This document shows, piece after piece, positions 46,632-54,033 of a stretch of DNA of 64,000 bases. The notes beneath the pieces were generated by a model. It did no database searches, was not told where the DNA came from, and saw only the letters and a list, made by a program, of their open reading frames with translations. Position numbers and translations under genes: made by a program. Numbering within the stretch: the first letter of the stretch is position 1; each line of letters opens with the position of its first letter. This DNA is from Nitrosopumilus sp. Lineage in GTDB: Archaea; Thermoproteota; Nitrososphaeria; Nitrososphaerales; Nitrosopumilaceae. Location of the stretch: positions 768,001 to 832,000 of the forward strand of contig OZ244650.1 of assembly GCA_965218785.1 (NCBI GenBank), read 5' to 3'.

Positions 46632-47009
46632 GATCTGATTCGATGATACTGATATAAAATCGTGCCTTACTGTATACTGACAAACTGTGATGAATTTAAT
46701 ATTTTCAGACAGATGCAATTAGGTAATGCAGATGTATGGAGATGTCCTGGAATTGGCAATCAGATCATTATTTGCATCAGGTATTGTGGGCAGAGAGGAG
46801 AAAACCAATGTATTACAAGAAGGATGTCTGTGTTGGGATCTTTCTAAGATTCCACATTACCATAATGGGGTTCTGTAAAGTTATAGAGGCCGACTAGTCA
46901 TAATGTCTGGAATTAATAAAATGTGTAACCACTTTTCAATACATGAAAAGCAGTACACAAACCTGGGCTGTCAACTATGATTTTTGAGATGTAAGTATAA
47001 TAAAAAGTT

Positions 47010-47051
47010 ATGAATGGCTGGGAGTCGAACCCAGTTCCCCTGAGTTGACAG
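47010..47051 (-). tRNA. 3' half of a tRNA-like sequence with a CTGTCAA loop; 5' half absent
   Basis: Minus strand CTGTCAA-CTCAG-GGGAA-CTGGG-TTCGACT-CCCAG-CCATTCA; perfect T arm; no D arm or acceptor partner upstream. Confidence 0.55.
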
Positions 47052-47052
47052 G

Positions 47053-47970
47053 GTGACGGATTCTAATAGGAATACGGATTCAGAAAAAACAGAGACCATT
47101 CCAATTTACATTTGGTCAAGCAGGGATTTGGATAAAAAAAAATTGATTGCAACTGAGACAGAAACAGACACTGGAATTTTTGAGGCATCTGTATCTTTTG
47201 GAATGACTGATGATATAACTAGTCAGCAAATACAGGCATTTGAGGGGGACACACTATACACTCAATATTATAATTTTGTATCACCCACGCCATTCTCAAC
47301 ATCCCGTGAGTACAACACAGACATGGATACGACAATTATGGGATGGGCACATCCGGACTCTGTGTGGGGTGATAACTGGGCAAACATCGTGGTGCAAAAC
47401 AATGTCAAATTCATTTATGATCCCTGCATGGTTGAATTCATGGACAAAATAGGTGAGAATGATCCCGGATTTGACCTGCTTGACATACAGTACCCCACAC
47501 CACTAAAACAAATGAAATCTGGATTATACCCATTTGAGATAAAATGCAAGGATCATTTATTGCTGATCTTCAGGCATTCGGATAGTTCCCCCGTATGTGC
47601 AAGTCCGGAACATGCCATAAAATTAACTTCAAAAGCAGGCTGGACGAATAATTTTAATCCGCTTGTCCATCCGATGGCTGATTCACCGACTCTTGAATAT
47701 AGAGAAAAGTTTTGCGAGTCACACAATGGAACCTGGTCTGAGCAGTTCAATAACTGTGTTGGTGGACTCTTGAATGTGCCATGCGATAACATTGATAGAT
47801 CCGAATTGAGCCCTCCGGATATTTTCATAGGGGTATATGGAGAAACAACCTGTTCATCACATGAATTATTTTGCAGGTCCATGGGCGGGCATTCTGAATG
47901 CATGTCTTATGAACAATTAGGACACGGACGTGATGTTTGTAGTTCCATCTGTGAGTTTGATGATAAATAA
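47053..47970 (+). CDS. N-terminally truncated surface-protein-like ORF
   Basis: Starts mid-domain (VTDSNRN...ETETDTGIFE), contains PLKQMKSG...C...PVC and a Cys-rich tail; no signal peptide. Confidence 0.6.
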   Translation: MTDSNRNTDSEKTETIPIYIWSSRDLDKKKLIATETETDTGIFEASVSFGMTDDITSQQIQAFEGDTLYTQYYNFVSPTPFSTSREYNTDMDTTIMGWAHPDSVWGDNWANIVVQNNVKFIYDPCMVEFMDKIGENDPGFDLLDIQYPTPLKQMKSGLYPFEIKCKDHLLLIFRHSDSSPVCASPEHAIKLTSKAGWTNNFNPLVHPMADSPTLEYREKFCESHNGTWSEQFNNCVGGLLNVPCDNIDRSELSPPDIFIGVYGETTCSSHELFCRSMGGHSECMSYEQLGHGRDVCSSICEFDDK

Positions 47971-48295
47971 CAGTTCAAATCCCAGGTGTTGAAAGATACC
48001 TGAATGGAATCTGACTGACCTCATGAATTTTTGATAATCGCCACATCTGATGAATCTAGGTTATAGTGGATTCTAGTGATCTGATCACCAAAATGCACCA
48101 GAGCCCAGCAAAGCGTGATTTCACACCAGATCCACCCAAAAATAGATCAAACTATAAAAATAATCAAATTCAGGGTAATTTCTATATACTAATTATGACT
48201 ACTTTACTCATGGATAGATTCACTTTAATTAATTATGATATGCGGTTAATTGATTTTTATACTTTGAATTTTATCAGTAGGAGTGAAGTCAAAGC

Positions 48296-48553
48296 ATGAG
48301 TAATTCAACAAGTACTGTCAAATCTAGTTTCCTTAATCCCAAAGAACGTAAAGCATTAAAAGAATACCAGGAGTATAAAGAACTCAGAATAATTGTTACA
48401 AGACCAGTTAGGGCATTTAATGATACTGAAGCAATACTGAAAGATTTACAAGGTGAGGGACTCTCATCATTACAGAAAGAAATTGAGCGATCAAAAAAAT
48501 CTCAAACAAAAACCATTACCAGACCAAAACTCAAAAGATCGCATGTTAGATGA
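48296..48553 (+). CDS. Small basic hypothetical protein
   Basis: GGAGTGA Shine-Dalgarno upstream; overlaps the protease start. Confidence 0.6.
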   Translation: MSNSTSTVKSSFLNPKERKALKEYQEYKELRIIVTRPVRAFNDTEAILKDLQGEGLSSLQKEIERSKKSQTKTITRPKLKRSHVR

Positions 48554-49355
48554 AACTGGAAAGATCATCAAACAAATAGAAGAGATACGCAAATCAAAAC
48601 TTCTAGTTGTTATATGTCATCAGTCAATCAGTTTACAAGCAAGCTTATCAATAAATAAAATCTTGCGTAAAATCGAACATTTGGATCATTTGGATATCCT
48701 TTTGGAATCTGGAGGAGGTGATATTGATGCAGCATATAAAATTCTTAACTTATTCAAAAGTTATGCAAGTAAAATATCTGTAATAGTTCCTTTTTATGCT
48801 AAAAGTGCTGCAACGTTAATTGCCCTTGGTGCTGATGAATTAATTGTTTGTAAGGCTGGGGAATTAGGTCCTCTTGATCCTCAAGTTAGAGATCCGCAAA
48901 CTAATTCATTTGTACCTGCACATTCCATTAAGGAAGCAATGAGTTTCATAGAAGAGATTCATGATCCTGTGATGAAACTAAGTCTAACTGACAAGATTCC
49001 TGCATTATTGATTGGTGCATATAGGGCATCAGGAAAATCATGCAAGCAATATCTTGATGCAATATTCACAGAAAAAAAGATAAAAGATAAAGATAAAATG
49101 ATAAAAATATTTACAGAGAAATTTTTGTCTCATGGTTATCCAATGCACAGAGACTTTTTAGCAAAATATCCCATTAATTTGATTAAACATGATGATGTAT
49201 TGGAAGATAAATTCTCTGAATTACATGAAAAATACAGTGATTATTATAAACAATTATACCGTGATAATTCAGAGTTAGCAGGAGATTTACTACTTTTACA
49301 ATCAAATGAGCATTCTCTAGTCATGTTAGATGATGAAGAAATTGATAACACATAA
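48543..49355 (+). CDS. SDH-family ClpP-fold serine protease
   Basis: LESGGGD, AKSAATLIALGADE, ELGPLDPQ, SHGYP. Confidence 0.88.
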   Translation: MLDETGKIIKQIEEIRKSKLLVVICHQSISLQASLSINKILRKIEHLDHLDILLESGGGDIDAAYKILNLFKSYASKISVIVPFYAKSAATLIALGADELIVCKAGELGPLDPQVRDPQTNSFVPAHSIKEAMSFIEEIHDPVMKLSLTDKIPALLIGAYRASGKSCKQYLDAIFTEKKIKDKDKMIKIFTEKFLSHGYPMHRDFLAKYPINLIKHDDVLEDKFSELHEKYSDYYKQLYRDNSELAGDLLLLQSNEHSLVMLDDEEIDNT

Positions 49356-49660
49356 ACCACCAATCTTTTGTCTCCACATCTTACAACAGAAAACTCAAGG
49401 TATAGGTGATTGTTGCATATATGGATTCCTACGATAGGTAAACTATCTTAATTTGTAAATTGCAAATGTCAATTCAAAAATACATACTACAGTGAAAGTC
49501 CGTGGACAGTGAGGTTCTGGTAGATTCTAGTGATCTGATCACCCAAATGCACCAGAGCCTACAACACCCATGTCTGGATCTGAGATCATCCCTCAACTTG
49601 TACCAGAATTTTGTGCATAAAATATCAAATTTTAAATATCCATTATGATAAACATGTCAT

Positions 49661-49804
49661 ATGGCAGTAAGAGAAGTTGCACCACTTAGTCAAAGACAAT
49701 GGGATAAATTACAGGAACTTATGGCAAGAGGATCTACTAAGAAACAATTGAAAACAATTGCAGACGCTAAAGAACGTATTAAAAATATCAAAGTAGAATT
49801 TTAG
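49661..49804 (+). CDS. 47-aa putative antitoxin, copy 1
   Basis: MAVREVAPLSQRQWDKLQELMARGSTKKQLKTIADAKERIKNIKVEF; TTTAAATA box upstream; directly precedes the GNAT gene. Confidence 0.7.
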   Translation: MAVREVAPLSQRQWDKLQELMARGSTKKQLKTIADAKERIKNIKVEF

Positions 49805-49815
49805 GTTTTTAAAAA

Positions 49816-50379
49816 TTGTCCGAACAAATTGATTTCAATGATCCAAACTTGATTAGATTTCAAAGAGTAAAATCACCTGCCGATTTAGATGGATTTAACT
49901 CTGATGTTGTTGAGTTTAATGAATACATTGGTCCGGAGATTGCTTTTGATCTAGAACACAGCATTACACGGGCTTACTTGATTAGAGTTGAAGAGGACGT
50001 TGTAGGATATATTGATTTATCCATGGCTCATCTTAAAAATAATGCAACTCCTGCCATAGCAGATAAACAAATTAAAAGCAATGTTCCGGCAATATTGATT
50101 AGTCATTTGGCTGTAGATGTCGTATTTCAAGGACACGGTGTTGGGAGATTCCTTTTAAAATTGATTATTGATAAATTGATTCCGAAATTAAAAAAAATGG
50201 CAGGATGCAGATATGTAATATTGAATCCAAGAGATGATCAAGGTGTCCGAGATTTTTATATAAATTGTAAATTTGAGTATGTTAAAAAACTCAAAGATGA
50301 CAGAAAACCTGATAATGAATTGGATTTTTGTTTGTTTGATTTGATAGGTATTAAAGAGGAAGATGAGGAATACACCTAG
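49816..50379 (+). CDS. GNAT acetyltransferase, TA-toxin type (TacT/AtaT-like)
   Basis: VVGYI, VPAILISHLAVD-x-x-FQGHGVGRFLL, GCRYVIL, DFY. Confidence 0.85.
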   Translation: MSEQIDFNDPNLIRFQRVKSPADLDGFNSDVVEFNEYIGPEIAFDLEHSITRAYLIRVEEDVVGYIDLSMAHLKNNATPAIADKQIKSNVPAILISHLAVDVVFQGHGVGRFLLKLIIDKLIPKLKKMAGCRYVILNPRDDQGVRDFYINCKFEYVKKLKDDRKPDNELDFCLFDLIGIKEEDEEYT

Positions 50380-50718
50380 AAAAATCCGTGAACTAAAAAC
50401 CATCAAAAAACTAGAGAGGTTAATGGCTTTACCCAAGACCCCTGAATAATAAAATCAAAATATCCTGAAAATAAATCACAAACTGTTTTGCCACACATTA
50501 CAAGAAATTTTTCACGACAACACAACGACTGATGCAAAACAGTGATCTGAGCACCAAAATGCAAAGTCCATGGTTTGGTGGATTCTAGTGATCTGATCAC
50601 CAAAATGCACCAGAGCCTACAACACCATGTCTGGATCTGAGATCATCCCTTCACTTATGCCTGATTTTTATACATAAAATGCCAAAATTTTAAATATCCA
50701 TTATGATAAACATGTCGC

Positions 50719-50862
50719 ATGGCAGTAAGAGAAGTTGCACCATTTGATGAAAAACAATGGAAACAATTACAGAAAAGTATGGCAAGAGGACCTACTAAGA
50801 AACAGTTGGAAATGATTGCAGACGCTAAAGAAAGTACCAAAAACATCAAAGTAGAATTTTAG
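50719..50862 (+). CDS. 47-aa putative antitoxin, copy 2
   Basis: MAVREVAPFDEKQWKQLQKSMARGPTKKQLEMIADAKESTKNIKVEF. Confidence 0.68.
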   Translation: MAVREVAPFDEKQWKQLQKSMARGPTKKQLEMIADAKESTKNIKVEF

Positions 50863-50873
50863 GTTTTTAAAAA

Positions 50874-50990
50874 TTGTCCGAACAAATTGATTTCAATGAT
50901 CCAAACTTGATTAGATTTCAAAGAGTAAAATCACCTGCCGATTTAGATGGATTTAACTCTGATGTTGATGAGTTTAATGAATACATTGGT
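50874..50990 (+). pseudogene. Truncated GNAT copy
   Basis: Near-identical to 49816-49932; cut at the palindrome starting at 50988. Confidence 0.85.
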
Positions 50991-51135
50991 TCTGGTGGAT
51001 TCTAGTGATCTGAGCACCAAAATGCACCAGAGCCTACAACACCATGTCTGGATCTGAGATCATCCCTCAACTTATGCCATATTTTTATACATAAAATGCC
51101 AAAATTTTAAATATTCATTATGATAAACATGTTGC

Positions 51136-51279
51136 ATGGCAGTAAGAGAAGTTGCACCATTTGATGAAAAACAATGGAAACAACTTGAGGAAATGATGTT
51201 CAGAGGATCTACTAAAAAACAATTGAAAGCAATTGCAGACGCTAAAGAACGTATTAAAAACATCAAAGTAGAATTTTAG
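51136..51279 (+). CDS. 47-aa putative antitoxin, copy 3
   Basis: MAVREVAPFDEKQWKQLEEMMFRGSTKKQLKAIADAKERIKNIKVEF. Confidence 0.68.
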   Translation: MAVREVAPFDEKQWKQLEEMMFRGSTKKQLKAIADAKERIKNIKVEF

Positions 51280-51290
51280 GTTTTTAAAAA

Positions 51291-51362
51291 TTGTCAGAAC
51301 GAATTGATTTCAATGATACAAGCTTGGTTGAATTTGAAAGGGTAAGATCACCTGCCGATTTA
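51291..51362 (+). pseudogene. Truncated, diverged GNAT copy
   Basis: SERIDFNDTSLVEFERVRSPADL, after which similarity ends. Confidence 0.75.
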
Positions 51363-51545
51363 GTTATAACATGGATCCCATTAATAAAACGCTTATTCTT
51401 TTTCTTTATTATCTACAGGAAAGAATTTCGCAATAATTGTCTCTGAATCTATCTTCATAACGTTTCCTTTTGTTGTACAAAAAGTAGATATCTAGGATTC
51501 AAAAGATCATAGTGGATTAATTTTGAATGATCTTCATTTTATTAA

Positions 51546-52238
51546 TTATTGAAATAATTCCGGCATTTTGATGTCTGATGGTATATTCTCCAGGATATCC
51601 AGTGGTTCGTTAAGCTCCATTGCACCGTACTCTATCATTTTTTCAGGCCATTTCAAGTTATTATTGTGAACTACCGACTTGCAAATAAACAGTGGTCTGC
51701 CTAGTCTGAGTGTCTCCAAGCCCTGATGTAGCGAACCGCTTGAATCACCGGCTTCCACAATTACAGTGGCATCAGAAATCAACGCCATGGTTTTGTTTCG
51801 CAACACAAAATCCTTTGGCGTAGTTGTATGACCTGTAGGATACTGGGAAATCACCAAATGATTTTTCATAATTTCTTCCTGCAATTCTGAATTTTCTTTG
51901 GGATAGACCCTGTTTAACGGAGTGCCAATAACTGCAATGGTTTTACCTTCATGTCTGATGGCAGTTTGGTGTCCTGCCGTATCAATTCCCTTTGCGAGTC
52001 CGCTTACAATGGTTACTTTGTTTTCAATCAAGCACTTTGAGATCTCTTTAGCTTCTGATAGTCCCTGTTCTGATGCTTTTCTAGAACCGATGATTGAGAC
52101 TCTTGGACAGGGTAAAGGAATCCTCATGGGACCTTTGCAGAAGATCCTCTTTGGAGCAAATTTTGATTCAACATCATTTAACAGACGACCGAGTAGTTTT
52201 TCTAATCGAATATCCTGATATCCTGCGTCTTTAACCAT
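51546..52238 (-). CDS. DprA/Smf-family protein (Rossmann domain only)
   Basis: SIIGSRKAS, IVSGLAKGID, F-x-x-RNKTMALIS, VEAGDSSGSL. Confidence 0.9.
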   Translation of the reverse strand: MVKDAGYQDIRLEKLLGRLLNDVESKFAPKRIFCKGPMRIPLPCPRVSIIGSRKASEQGLSEAKEISKCLIENKVTIVSGLAKGIDTAGHQTAIRHEGKTIAVIGTPLNRVYPKENSELQEEIMKNHLVISQYPTGHTTTPKDFVLRNKTMALISDATVIVEAGDSSGSLHQGLETLRLGRPLFICKSVVHNNNLKWPEKMIEYGAMELNEPLDILENIPSDIKMPELFQ

Positions 52239-52359
52239 CTATTAGGAAACCATCATGTTTGTATTTTAATATTAGTGACACGCAAATATTTTTGAGATCA
52301 ATTTTATCAAACCAAAAACTACAAGGATCATTCCTGTTCTAAAATAACATGAGATCAAT

Positions 52360-52645
52360 CATGCCGGAAGATTTCAGAAAAGCGTACAAAAAAGAAAAAG
52401 ATCCAAAAGTAAAGCCAAGAATGCTCAGTACACATGTTTTATGTACGTAACAAGGATGTGCAGGAAATAGCACAAGATCTACTGCAATGTCCTAACTGGG
52501 TCACCTAGTGAGTAGAACGCTTGGAAAATGAAGGTCTGGAAGGCTCCTGGATCTTCCCAAATATGAAAGACCTGTAAAAATTCCACACAAAAAAATGGAT
52601 CAGATAATGCCCAAAACATCCAGTGGACGCATTACGCCGGGATTC
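52360..52645 (+). mobile_element. IS630-family transposase N-terminal remnant
   Basis: AYKKEKDPKVKPRML...EIAQDLLQCPNWV...ERLENEGLEG-L-DLP, broken by stops and frameshifts. Confidence 0.65.
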
Positions 52646-52742
52646 CACCATTATTTGCACATCCATTTGTAATTTTGTATTATGATACAGCAACATCATG
52701 TATTGTAAAAATTTCAGAAATAGTTAATTCTCTAAATTTCAT
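52640..52742 (-). pseudogene. Doc/Fic toxin N-terminal remnant
   Basis: MKFRELTISEIFTIHDVAVS*YKITNGCANNGGI resembles the Doc N-terminus L-T-x-x-E-I-x-x-I-H-D...G; in-frame stop, abuts the IS630 relic. Confidence 0.5.
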
Positions 52743-52815
52743 CTAATGCATCAAAAATCACTCTTGACTCATTAATGCTTTTTCTAACTGCTTCTTGGAG
52801 CTCTTCTTTAGTCAT
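52732..52815 (-). CDS. 27-aa putative Phd-like antitoxin
   Basis: MTKEELQEAVRKSINESRVIFDALDEI; overlaps the Doc-like start. Confidence 0.45.
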   Translation of the reverse strand: MTKEELQEAVRKSINESRVIFDALDEI

Positions 52816-53333
52816 TTTCAATACCAATTTAACATTATAATATAATCTATTAAAGATAACGGTTGTCTGCTCTGGATAATTTGCGGGTGTTTTCACTGCA
52901 CTGTAATTGGGGTGTTTTCGAGAATTTTAGATACTTGTAGCGATCAAAAATTGCATATTAAGTCAATAATCCTGCTTTAAAAATATTCCAGCTATCTAAA
53001 AATGGAGATGTTAAACCTTGACCCACCAACCATTATTTTTTCCAGATAGGGTATTCCCAGTACCATCTGAATTTCGTTTTTTCTTCACATGTGGTTAATA
53101 GAATAAACGGTAGAATTTTTATTGAAATCTACTTTAATTTGGATGCTGATACGTAATTGGTTGCCTTGAAACACGATTCTGGTGTAAAACAGTGGTCTGA
53201 TCACCCCAATACATCAGAACCGGTGGGACTGACTCTGGAGAAGATCATATTTCATACCTCATGTCTAGCACACGATAATTTCACAGTACCGATCATACCA
53301 AAAAATTATAAAGTCATTTTGTTATAATATAAC

Positions 53334-53456
53334 ATGATACCAAAAGAAAAACTACTATGGACTGCTAAAGATAGTGAGGATGCTAAAGCATTCGTAGAAG
53401 GTGTAGATAACGGTTCAATTCAAACCGAGGATTTCTTTAATTTAAAAAGGACATAA
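53334..53456 (+). CDS. 40-aa microprotein, possible antitoxin
   Basis: MIPKEKLLWTAKDSEDAKAFVEGVDNGSIQTEDFFNLKRT; TTATAAAG box ~25 bp upstream. Confidence 0.4.
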   Translation: MIPKEKLLWTAKDSEDAKAFVEGVDNGSIQTEDFFNLKRT

Positions 53457-53556
53457 TATTCATTAGTAAATGCCTTGGATACCTTCAAGTCATTCTCCAA
53501 ATGTGGTTGATTTCAGTTTATGCATTTGGAATATGTCAGTCCAAGATAGATTACCA

Positions 53557-53688
53557 CTAAACTCTATCGAGTTCTTGCAATAGCTCCTTGAGGGTTTTTA
53601 TCTCTCCATCCTCACGGTTGCTTCTGAATTCTTTAATGTCCTTAATCTCTTCAGGTGTCAAATCATCAGACTGTTTTGTTTCAGTCAT
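53557..53688 (-). CDS. 43-aa putative antitoxin, paralog of 45386-45529
   Basis: MTETKQSDDLTPEEIKDIKEF...KTLKELLQEL; shares DDLTPEEIKDI with the 45386 ORF. Confidence 0.6.
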   Translation of the reverse strand: MTETKQSDDLTPEEIKDIKEFRSNREDGEIKTLKELLQELDRV

Positions 53689-54033
53689 ATTCTTTCTATT
53701 TTTTATATATTAAAAAAGACTATGAATCAAGATTATGCAAATTTGCAGACTCGATCAATCTTTTCCATATTTTGATGGTTATGATACCTGCTATCAATAT
53801 TAGATGATTCAGATTGGATGGTTCTACAAAACACTGTCTGAATCAATCCTCCAGTCTACAATACCCTCATTCTGACTTGGAAAAAACAGATCTGATGATA
53901 AACTGGAACACCACCACACACCATACAACTGCCAAATATGCGTAAAACCGTTCCACAGATGATATCATGCTGGGATAACTGACGGGATCCTGTCAAGAAA
54001 ACTTTAAACCTACTCAACAACACCAGTTTTTAA

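Follow-up and report, generated by a model that had tools for sequence, protein, structure and literature searches.

Three intact 47-residue genes and one whole GNAT in a Nitrosopumilus tandem array: a candidate toxin-antitoxin module with an unannotated small partner

We analysed a 64,000-nucleotide stretch of a Nitrosopumilus sp. genome (contig OZ244650.1, positions 768,001 to 832,000; hereafter the window), which carries a head-to-tail array of three units built on a small open reading frame (ORF) and a GNAT acetyltransferase gene. Each unit has the same order: a 47-nt palindrome, a TATA-like box, an intact 47-aa ORF and the start of a GNAT frame. Only unit 1 holds a whole GNAT, and units 2 and 3 end in stubs of 39 and 24 codons. 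The original prediction, made from the letters alone, had described three such units, three intact 144-nt ORFs with conserved ends and variable middles, and GNAT copies cut after about 39 and 24 codons, and the ORF list and alignment bear out each of these points. It had also made the palindrome a part of the unit. The palindrome is indeed present in all three, but it is not specific to them, being a dispersed repeat with 19 copies in the genome.

The spacing within the units is regular. The palindrome and the box TTTTAAATAT lie about 70 nt apart in each unit, the box precedes the ATG of each small ORF by 22-31 nt, and the TTG of the GNAT frame lies 11 nt past the small ORF stop. A box-to-ATG spacing of this length fits leaderless archaeal transcripts. 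The box and start context are nearly invariant across all four close units of this genome. By ungapped identity, the outer copies of the 300-nt repeat that a repeat finder reports here match the middle copy at 77% and 91%. GNAT stub 2 joins the unit 3 palindrome directly, reading ...ATTGGT/TCTGGTGG across the junction, with GGT common to both partners. The coordinates are collected in the table.

Table. Features of the array and related elements. Positions are in the window unless prefixed C1, which marks sites elsewhere in the same genome
Feature	Position	Strand	Remark
Unit 1	49509-50566	+	sole unit with whole GNAT
Unit 2	50567-50983	+	GNAT stub
Unit 3	50984-51362	+	GNAT stub
300-nt repeat copies	49518-49817, 50576-50875, 50993-51292		repeat finder
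Fourth palindrome copy in window	48055-48105 (core match 48069-48105)	+	upstream of 85-aa ORF and protease cassette
Palindrome, unit 1, 47 nt	49513-49559	+	member of 19-copy genome family
Palindrome, unit 2, 47 nt	50571-50617	+	repeat family
Palindrome, unit 3, 47 nt	50988-51034	+	repeat family
Partial variant palindrome	50530-50566 (core 50541-50563)	+	3' end of unit 1; repeat family D3
TATA-like box, unit 1	49630-49639	+	read in sequence; putative promoter
TATA-like box, unit 2	50688-50697	+	read in sequence
TATA-like box, unit 3	51105-51114	+	read in sequence
Small ORF 1, 47 aa	49661-49804	+	predicted antitoxin cognate to the intact GNAT; ORF list, family profile, co-fold
Small ORF 2, 47 aa	50719-50862	+	intact, orphan; ORF list, alignment
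Small ORF 3, 47 aa	51136-51279	+	intact, orphan; ORF list, alignment
Whole GNAT gene, 187 aa	49816-50379	+	TTG start; Pfam, PDB searches, AF2 model
GNAT stub 2	50874-50990	+	first 39 codons; frame continues to stop at 51005
GNAT stub 3	51291-51362	+	first 24 codons, then unrelated sequence; frame continues to 51446
Distant small ORF	C1:1289200-1289340		intact; beside broken GNAT; no palindrome
Distant small ORF	C1:900721-900867		intact; beside broken GNAT
Palindrome copies outside the window (15), examples	C1:37123, 38310, 631120, 631701, 900942, 923851, 924256, 1277464, 1278528, 1414681, 1416927		

What kind of GNAT does unit 1 encode? Its match to Pfam Acetyltransf_1 is modest (23.8 bits against a cut-off of 20.7), and its relatives of solved structure are mostly toxins. 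In a phmmer search of the PDB, the top match was 7f37_B (AtaT2-AtaR2, E 1.1e-9) and the second 9ilr_A (GmvT, 3e-7), followed by TacT, AtaT and KacT chains; at least 14 of the 18 matches listed are AtaT, TacT, KacT or GmvT entries. The AlphaFold model (AF2; pLDDT 89.0, pTM 0.84, with 31 homologues in the alignment) has GNAT topology. Among its Foldseek matches, the listed ranks 1-36 are all titled KacT, AtaT, AtaT2, TacT1-3 or GmvT, save 7byy, titled only 'bacterial toxin', and ordinary GNATs appear from rank 38 onward. Residues 104-109 (QGHGVG) fit the acetyl-CoA motif Q/R-x-x-G-x-G/A. Tyr148, invariant in 31/31 aligned homologues, aligns with the Tyr of AtaT2 (RNFY) and, judging from its position and from PDB titles, would be equivalent to the catalytic Y144 of AtaT and Y145 of KacT. 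The N-terminus read from TTG is conserved among homologues, and therefore we consider the start call sound. By sequence and predicted fold, this GNAT belongs to the tRNA-acetylating AtaT/TacT/KacT clade and is closer to toxin-antitoxin (TA) toxins than to other GNATs; by homology it would be toxic and would acetylate aminoacyl-tRNA.

The 47-aa protein belongs to a small family of its own. A profile search of 1.84 billion representative sequences gave 55 clusters at E ≤ 1e-3, nearly all of 46-55 aa and with the consensus MALREVKPLxxKQWxxLxxxMxxGPTxxQ...A.E..K..K; the few long matches to the profile consist of several short stretches each and look spurious. The only name that sources give to these proteins is 'hypothetical protein'. 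The family occurs in 18/201 sampled genomes of the same taxonomic family, spread over 10 of 27 genera, and in 1 of 257 genomes sampled from the rest of the phylum, so that it is nearly confined to one archaeal family. Titles of relatives include Nitrosopumilus sp., Cenarchaeum sp. and Nitrosarchaeum sp. We asked how often the 58 small-ORF matches with E < 1e-3 (ten with E > 1e-3 were excluded) have a GNAT of this family on the same strand within 500 nt downstream. The GNAT is full for 21 small ORFs (one GNAT being counted twice), near-full for 5 and broken or partial for 15, and no GNAT was detectable by this criterion for the other 17. The gap is typically about 10 nt, or a 4-nt overlap, across genera. 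The 47-aa gene is thus a conserved upstream partner of the GNAT across genera. The DUF1778 domain was found in 1/301 genomes sampled from the phylum and in 0/43 from the same taxonomic family. Since DUF1778 is almost unseen there, the GNAT toxin clade has a different partner in this lineage.

Could the small protein be a ribbon-helix-helix (RHH) antitoxin in disguise? Its AlphaFold monomer (pLDDT 91.9) has an extended segment at residues 1-10, a helix at 11-23, a G-x-T turn, a second helix at 27-40 and an extended C-terminus. A G-x-S/T/N turn is typical of RHH proteins; the predicted strand-helix-helix-like topology recalls them, and an RHH-like fold is conceivable. No search gave further support for such a relationship. 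None of 43 family members matched an RHH or DUF1778 Pfam family at E ≤ 10, a threshold at which 24 unrelated families gave scattered weak matches among the same 43; the DUF1778 model, PF08681, has 80 positions against the 47 aa here. The window small ORFs matched no family in Pfam, NCBIfam or PADLOC (E ≤ 0.01, 0.1 and 0.01, respectively). Against the PDB, the family profile found no TacA, AtaR, KacA or RHH chain, only de novo TIM barrels and chance matches. An hhalign comparison with NikR (26 sequences from related genomes) gave 0.3% probability, a figure for a single RHH family and hence not decisive. Among structure-based searches, Foldseek returned a single match (E 9.3), VIA-align against 48,161 chains reached a best Z of 3.4 at a root-mean-square deviation of 6-12 Å, which is uninformative, and the ESM Atlas gave three unnamed clusters at a score of 0.80, the chance level.

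The two proteins are predicted to bind each other. We co-folded the GNAT with the product of small ORF 1, supplying alignments for both, and obtained ipSAE values of 0.66, 0.68 and 0.45 in three runs, with 0.00 for all three controls. The mark applied to this score is reached by 116/157 solved complexes and 2/215 mismatched pairs, a calibration that holds only roughly with own alignments. The partner has a pLDDT of 75-81, and the runs share at least 80% of contacts. In the model, residues 4-47 of the small protein touch the GNAT. Contacts are best defined where its residues 42-47 pair with GNAT strand 13-17, and its helices lie on GNAT residues 71-77, 90-94, 112-121, 132-137, 151-159 and 169-179. 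Simple recall of the solved AtaR or TacA complexes is an unlikely source of this outcome, given that no similarity between the partner and DUF1778 was detectable. Titles in the PDB indicate that the C-terminal part of AtaR/TacA-type antitoxins, about the size of the 47-aa protein, binds toxin alone, and the small protein may be a functional analogue of that part. The original prediction had cast the GNAT as an AtaT/TacT relative, which sequence and predicted fold agree with, and its partner as an RHH-less minimal antitoxin, a fair working description given the Pfam and NikR results. It had also proposed a multimer model of each variant with the GNAT; for the unit 1 variant such a model supports binding.

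Small ORFs outlast their GNATs. In this genome 5/5 small ORFs are intact and 1/5 GNATs, that of unit 1. The four broken GNATs are cut at codon 39, at codon 24, near codon 14 and near codon 100, the last with frame breaks. A sister genome, a metagenome-assembled Nitrosopumilus sp. with a 2.36-Mb chromosome, has six dispersed copies of the module, of which 5/6 small ORFs and 1/6 GNATs are intact. Its GNAT is full at one locus (L083), in two pieces at another (L080), cut at residue 118 (L081), without its first 27 residues (L084) or a stub of about 13 codons (L082), each beside an intact small ORF; at the sixth (L097, contig range 318399-321449) the GNAT is deleted and part of the small ORF with it. 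There the deletion fuses small ORF codon 17 to the middle of its GNAT. Similar arrays occur elsewhere: a genome of another genus (G059) has three units of promoter and small ORF with GNAT stubs of about 15 codons, the last unit with a full GNAT; G071 carries a trio of small ORFs, interrupted by a GNAT stub and closed by a longer GNAT; and G001 has two small ORFs ahead of one GNAT. Stubs thus stand between small ORFs in two of these three arrays. A toxin and its antidote would be expected to show just this asymmetry, the GNAT lost and the small ORF kept, which we regard as supportive, not decisive.

One diverged module of this genome is also of note for its surroundings. At C1:899400-901000 (L041/L005), a small ORF with 37% identity (tblastn) stands beside a GNAT broken near residue 100. 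Its flanks carry a palindrome abutting the 5' end of a tRNA gene and, about 1.5 kb away, a degenerate inverted palindrome.

How old are the three variants? The small ORFs of the array differ pairwise at 19-20/144 nt, with 18-19/99 nt in codons 9-41 and 0/24 and 0-1/21 nt at the two ends, so that the encoded proteins have identical ends and variable middles. From their sister-genome counterparts, the unit 1, 2 and 3 ORFs differ at 8/144, 4/144 and 9/144 nt, respectively. Because each is closer to its sister counterpart than to the other units, the variants are older than the species split. By this comparison they are old paralogue lineages and not the product of rapid divergence in place. They have also been mixed. 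The 5' half of the unit 1 ORF differs from its sister counterpart at 1/72 nt, while its 3' half is closest to unit 3 (3/72). GNAT stub 2 differs from unit 1 at 1/128 nt, with a single difference in its 39 codons, while the two ORFs differ at 20/144, and upstream of the ORFs the units of the array resemble each other more closely than they do their counterparts in the other species. This mosaic pattern is most simply read as recombination or gene conversion between paralogues.

Nei-Gojobori ratios of nonsynonymous to synonymous substitution (dN/dS) were 0.47-1.10 among the copies of this genome, where counts are tiny, and 0.25-0.66 between cross-species counterparts, which have 4-9 differences per pair; one cross-species pair has 0 synonymous and 4 nonsynonymous changes. 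Neither set of pairwise ratios gives a signal of positive selection. Across nine close copies, substitutions favour the columns that vary across the family (one-sided Mann-Whitney p = 0.026), and M1, R4, P8, W14, G24, T26 and Q29 are unchanged in 9/9. Since substitutions avoid the family-conserved columns, we infer continuing constraint on the orphans. None of the nine has an indel or a stop in its 144 nt, and the flanks carry indels.

We therefore favour, with moderate confidence, the view that the array derives from a type II-like GNAT TA module in which an unannotated 47-residue protein takes the place of the DUF1778 antitoxin, and in which the orphan copies add to the antitoxin supply or cross-neutralise. 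The small gene would be transcribed from its own TATA promoter as a leaderless message, with the GNAT following from its TTG. The small protein would wrap the GNAT whole, its C-terminal strand (42-47) pairing with GNAT strand 13-17 and its two helices placed on the surface near helix 112-121 and strands 90-94 and 132-137, and this wrapping would hold the enzyme inactive. A released GNAT would acetylate aminoacyl-tRNA, and translation would stop. The module would have multiplied by local duplication and recombination, with all toxins but one later lost: the two extra units in the window and the two elsewhere would be module copies from which deletion or rearrangement removed the GNAT, one breakpoint falling exactly at the neighbouring palindrome and each copy keeping its promoter and small gene. 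Most likely, the orphan small genes are kept as an extra antitoxin supply or as cross-neutralisers of the remaining GNAT; at both ends, N- and C-terminal, they have the same contact segments as the cognate copy.

Several points weigh against this interpretation. GNATs with short upstream ORFs lacking DNA-binding domains fall outside the 'true TA clade', with other physiological roles possible, according to PMC9177977. Autoregulation has no explanation if the antitoxin lacks a DNA-binding domain. The co-fold score expresses how confident the model itself is and covers the unit 1 variant only. The cross-species dN/dS ratios rest on only 4-9 differences per pair, and the between-unit ratios of 0.56-1.09 would also fit weak or absent constraint at the positions that vary. 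Finally, an excess of broken GNATs is partly expected from target size (564 nt for the GNAT, 144 nt for the small ORF), and our survey began from recognisable small ORFs, an ascertainment bias.

Why keep several small proteins for one GNAT? Orphan and chromosomal antitoxins can act as anti-addiction modules, and the copies here resemble them in that intact, promoter-bearing genes persist without a functional cognate toxin; unlike them, they stand in tandem with toxin stubs, and the same layout is found in several genera. The original prediction went further and took the copies for a bank of specificity variants against incoming GNAT toxins; on this view each diverged small protein would neutralise a different toxin, for example one arriving on a mobile element or virus. 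Three or four variant lineages are indeed intact in this and the sister genome while most of their own GNATs are broken, variation falls in the two helices with predicted toxin contacts, other genera also have tandem arrays, and the array lies in an AT-rich accessory island (32-38% GC against 41% for the window) with a ShosA-like defence gene adjoining. However, dN/dS, the check that had been proposed for diversification, shows no excess; the variable residues are not enriched at the predicted interface (17/22 against a background of 36/47 by our own tally); and the strongest predicted contacts lie at the N- and C-termini, where the variants do not differ, which points to a shared and not a distinct specificity. 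No foreign GNAT toxin partner was identified. With lineages that are old and recombined, the proposed bank is left without support, and we consider an immunity function of this kind unlikely.

The extra units might instead be neutral debris, their small ORFs intact only through shortness and without present function. A 144-nt target is hit less often than one of 564 nt, the between-unit dN/dS is near 1, the sister copy L097 has lost part of its small ORF, and the DNA at 52239-54033 looks degraded. Against this, the freedom of all nine close copies from indels and stops contrasts with their indel-bearing flanks, the family-conserved residues are untouched in 9/9 copies (p = 0.026), the four close units hardly differ in TATA box and start context, and the variant lineages persist across the species split. 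We hold decay without function to be an improbable account of the small genes. A little less likely again is a wider proposal, in which an archaeal lineage has exchanged the two-domain DUF1778 antitoxin for a 47-residue one that is free of DNA binding and neutralises a tRNA-acetylating GNAT by wrapping it, several old recombining alleles, kept as orphan cassettes with promoters and often in tandem, provide standing immunity against GNATs of mobile elements or viruses, and the 47-nt palindrome, specific to the species group, is the site at which such cassettes are assembled by recombination.

It is also conceivable that this is no TA system, the GNAT being a non-toxic acetyltransferase and the small protein its regulatory subunit, its substrate or an independent regulator. 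PMC9177977 raises this possibility for GNATs with short upstream ORFs lacking DNA-binding domains, and the family has a conserved N-terminus in which Lys is frequent at position 7, a possible acetylation target. Yet the window copies carry Ala, not Lys, at that position, the nearest relatives of the GNAT in sequence and structure are almost all proven TA toxins, and the GNAT has been pseudogenised while its partner was retained, the asymmetry expected of a toxin. We think a non-toxic role quite improbable.

Is the array itself real? We compared the assembly with short-read unitigs of three runs (X1, X2 and X3) from two studies, one of which may be the source of the assembly. Error-free unitigs cover the unit 1/unit 2 boundary (50365-50601) and the junction of stub 2 with the palindrome (50864-50990 and 50875-50990), a further one (51266-51600) crosses from unit 3 into the downstream sequence without mismatch, and error-free pieces specific to ORF 2 and ORF 3 are also present. 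Among the unitigs of the three runs, no single record spans the whole array. Joints in X2 and X3 that skip 369-378 nt (from 50609-50617 to 50987-50988) were considered as a deletion variant and rejected, since their flanking sides are 26-27 nt long and lie inside the repeat. The L097 junction sequence recurs as a loose end in run X2 at the window, and therefore X2 also contains a sister strain or species. Misassembly is unlikely on this evidence: that strain variants of one locus were collapsed into a false tandem array would fit with units that are repeats bounded by a dispersed palindrome, with unitigs that break at repeats and with the related sequence that loose ends matching sister-genome junctions reveal in X2 and X3, but we give it almost no credence in view of the error-free crossing of each unit-specific junction, a depth of 16-29 for unique pieces in X1 against 16-18 for the flanks, a contig of 1.99 Mb and the comparable arrays known in other genomes.

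The palindrome deserves separate mention. The 47-nt sequence (GGTTCTGGTG...CACCAGAACC) has an outer stem of 10 bp, an internal loop that is partly paired, and the inner stem GTGATC/GATCAC. Its 37-nt core has 4 matches in the window against 0 expected from 100 shuffles. The 19 genome copies (at most 7 core substitutions) are often paired 0.4-2.2 kb apart and flank accessory genes, among them an AAA ATPase beside a STAND/KAP NTPase, a DndB-like gene and several unknowns. The sister genome has the palindrome as well, one copy lying about 150 nt downstream of its intact GNAT, just as in the window. In 40 further genomes sampled from the genus, and at the TA loci of other genera, no copy was found. 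The pair differences among the 19 copies are mismatches and G-T pairs, none of them a compensatory change, and no Rfam family was found at 47000-53000 at E ≤ 1. We read it as a young dispersed repeat marking cassette boundaries and not as the operator of this operon. Since the unit 2/unit 3 junction falls exactly at its edge, it probably promotes rearrangement.

Two known kinds of element were considered for it and rejected. A REP element mobilised by a RAYT protein would need a Y1 (IS200/IS605-like) transposase, and PF01797 has no match in this genome (6/14 control genomes were positive). An integron cassette array would need an integron-type tyrosine recombinase beside it, and the genome has only two PF00589 matches (C1:374313 and C1:72057), both far from every palindrome cluster. 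The palindrome may be an undescribed type of site that bounds or mobilises cassettes.

The surroundings of the array are accessory in character. The fourth palindrome of the window is the left edge of an array of palindrome-bounded cassettes, and an AT-rich island extends from there over 48055-54033. The cassette at 48296-49355 (+), preceded by that palindrome, has the lowest GC content of the window segments measured (32%). Its 85-aa ORF runs into the start of the next gene, which encodes an SDH-type ClpP-fold serine protease of 300 aa (PF01972, E 6e-17). Upstream, between a deoxyhypusine synthase gene and the first palindrome, 47053-47970 (+) encodes a 305-aa protein with an NCBIfam match (WING-49, E 9.3e-15) and no Pfam family. 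Downstream lies a DprA-like gene at 51546-52238 (-). It aligns with positions 96-294 of the 303 in the PADLOC ShosA profile (E 2.5e-72); in the ShosTA defence pair, ShosA is the half that resembles an antitoxin. A search of the 1.8 kb upstream (15 stop-to-stop frames, 52234-54029) detected neither a ShosT partner nor a remnant of one, and the gene may be another orphan antidote beside the array. The following 1.8 kb or so (52239-54033) have no ORF above 80 aa on either strand and a GC content of 34.5% against 41% for the window, and look like degraded accessory DNA at the right edge of the island.

How does the module compare with known systems? To our knowledge, nearly all known GNAT toxins are bacterial and have DUF1778 partners. 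These GNAT-DUF1778 systems (AtaT-AtaR, TacT-TacA, KacT-KacA and GmvT-GmvA) have the same toxin fold, are closest by sequence and structure, and likewise have a small gene directly upstream in the same orientation; toxin binding, a further likeness, is here predicted. DUF1778-type antitoxins are about 90 aa long, whereas the partner here has 47 aa, no Pfam match to DUF1778 (TacA1) or RHH, and an archaeal host. The partner here has no evident DNA-binding domain, and autoregulation by conditional cooperativity, as described for those systems in PMC6698736, has no obvious counterpart.

GNAT toxins are able to change partners from one antitoxin family to another. Going by the parts available of the two papers, the partners on record are DUF1778, DUF4065 (in the DUF4065-GNAT systems of clade C; PMC9177977) and Xre (in the GNAT-Xre system PacTA; PMC9561280), together with uncharacterised short ORFs. 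The 47-residue partner is neither DUF4065 nor Xre, is far smaller and has no annotated domain. It does match a description in the available part of PMC9177977, that of a GNAT-toxin homologue preceded by a short ORF in which no DNA-binding domain can be predicted. Those loci, outside the 'true TA clade', are left uncharacterised in that part of the paper; here the partner is a conserved family with predicted binding. A literature search found no paper on this archaeal GNAT/47-aa pair, and the available part of PMC6563490 makes no mention of it.

What is new is that an archaeal family of abundant ammonia-oxidiser relatives carries this toxin clade with a different, very small and unannotated partner, whose genes current annotation pipelines label hypothetical or skip. 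If binding and rescue hold true, no protein antitoxin known for this toxin class would be shorter than the 47-residue protein, which would also be a clean model for separating neutralisation from DNA binding. The array, moreover, would be a natural record of TA decay, in which units of promoter, antitoxin and toxin stub were amplified while one intact toxin remained per genome in the two genomes examined fully. It would show how orphan antitoxins arise, and its recurrence in three genera makes comparison possible.

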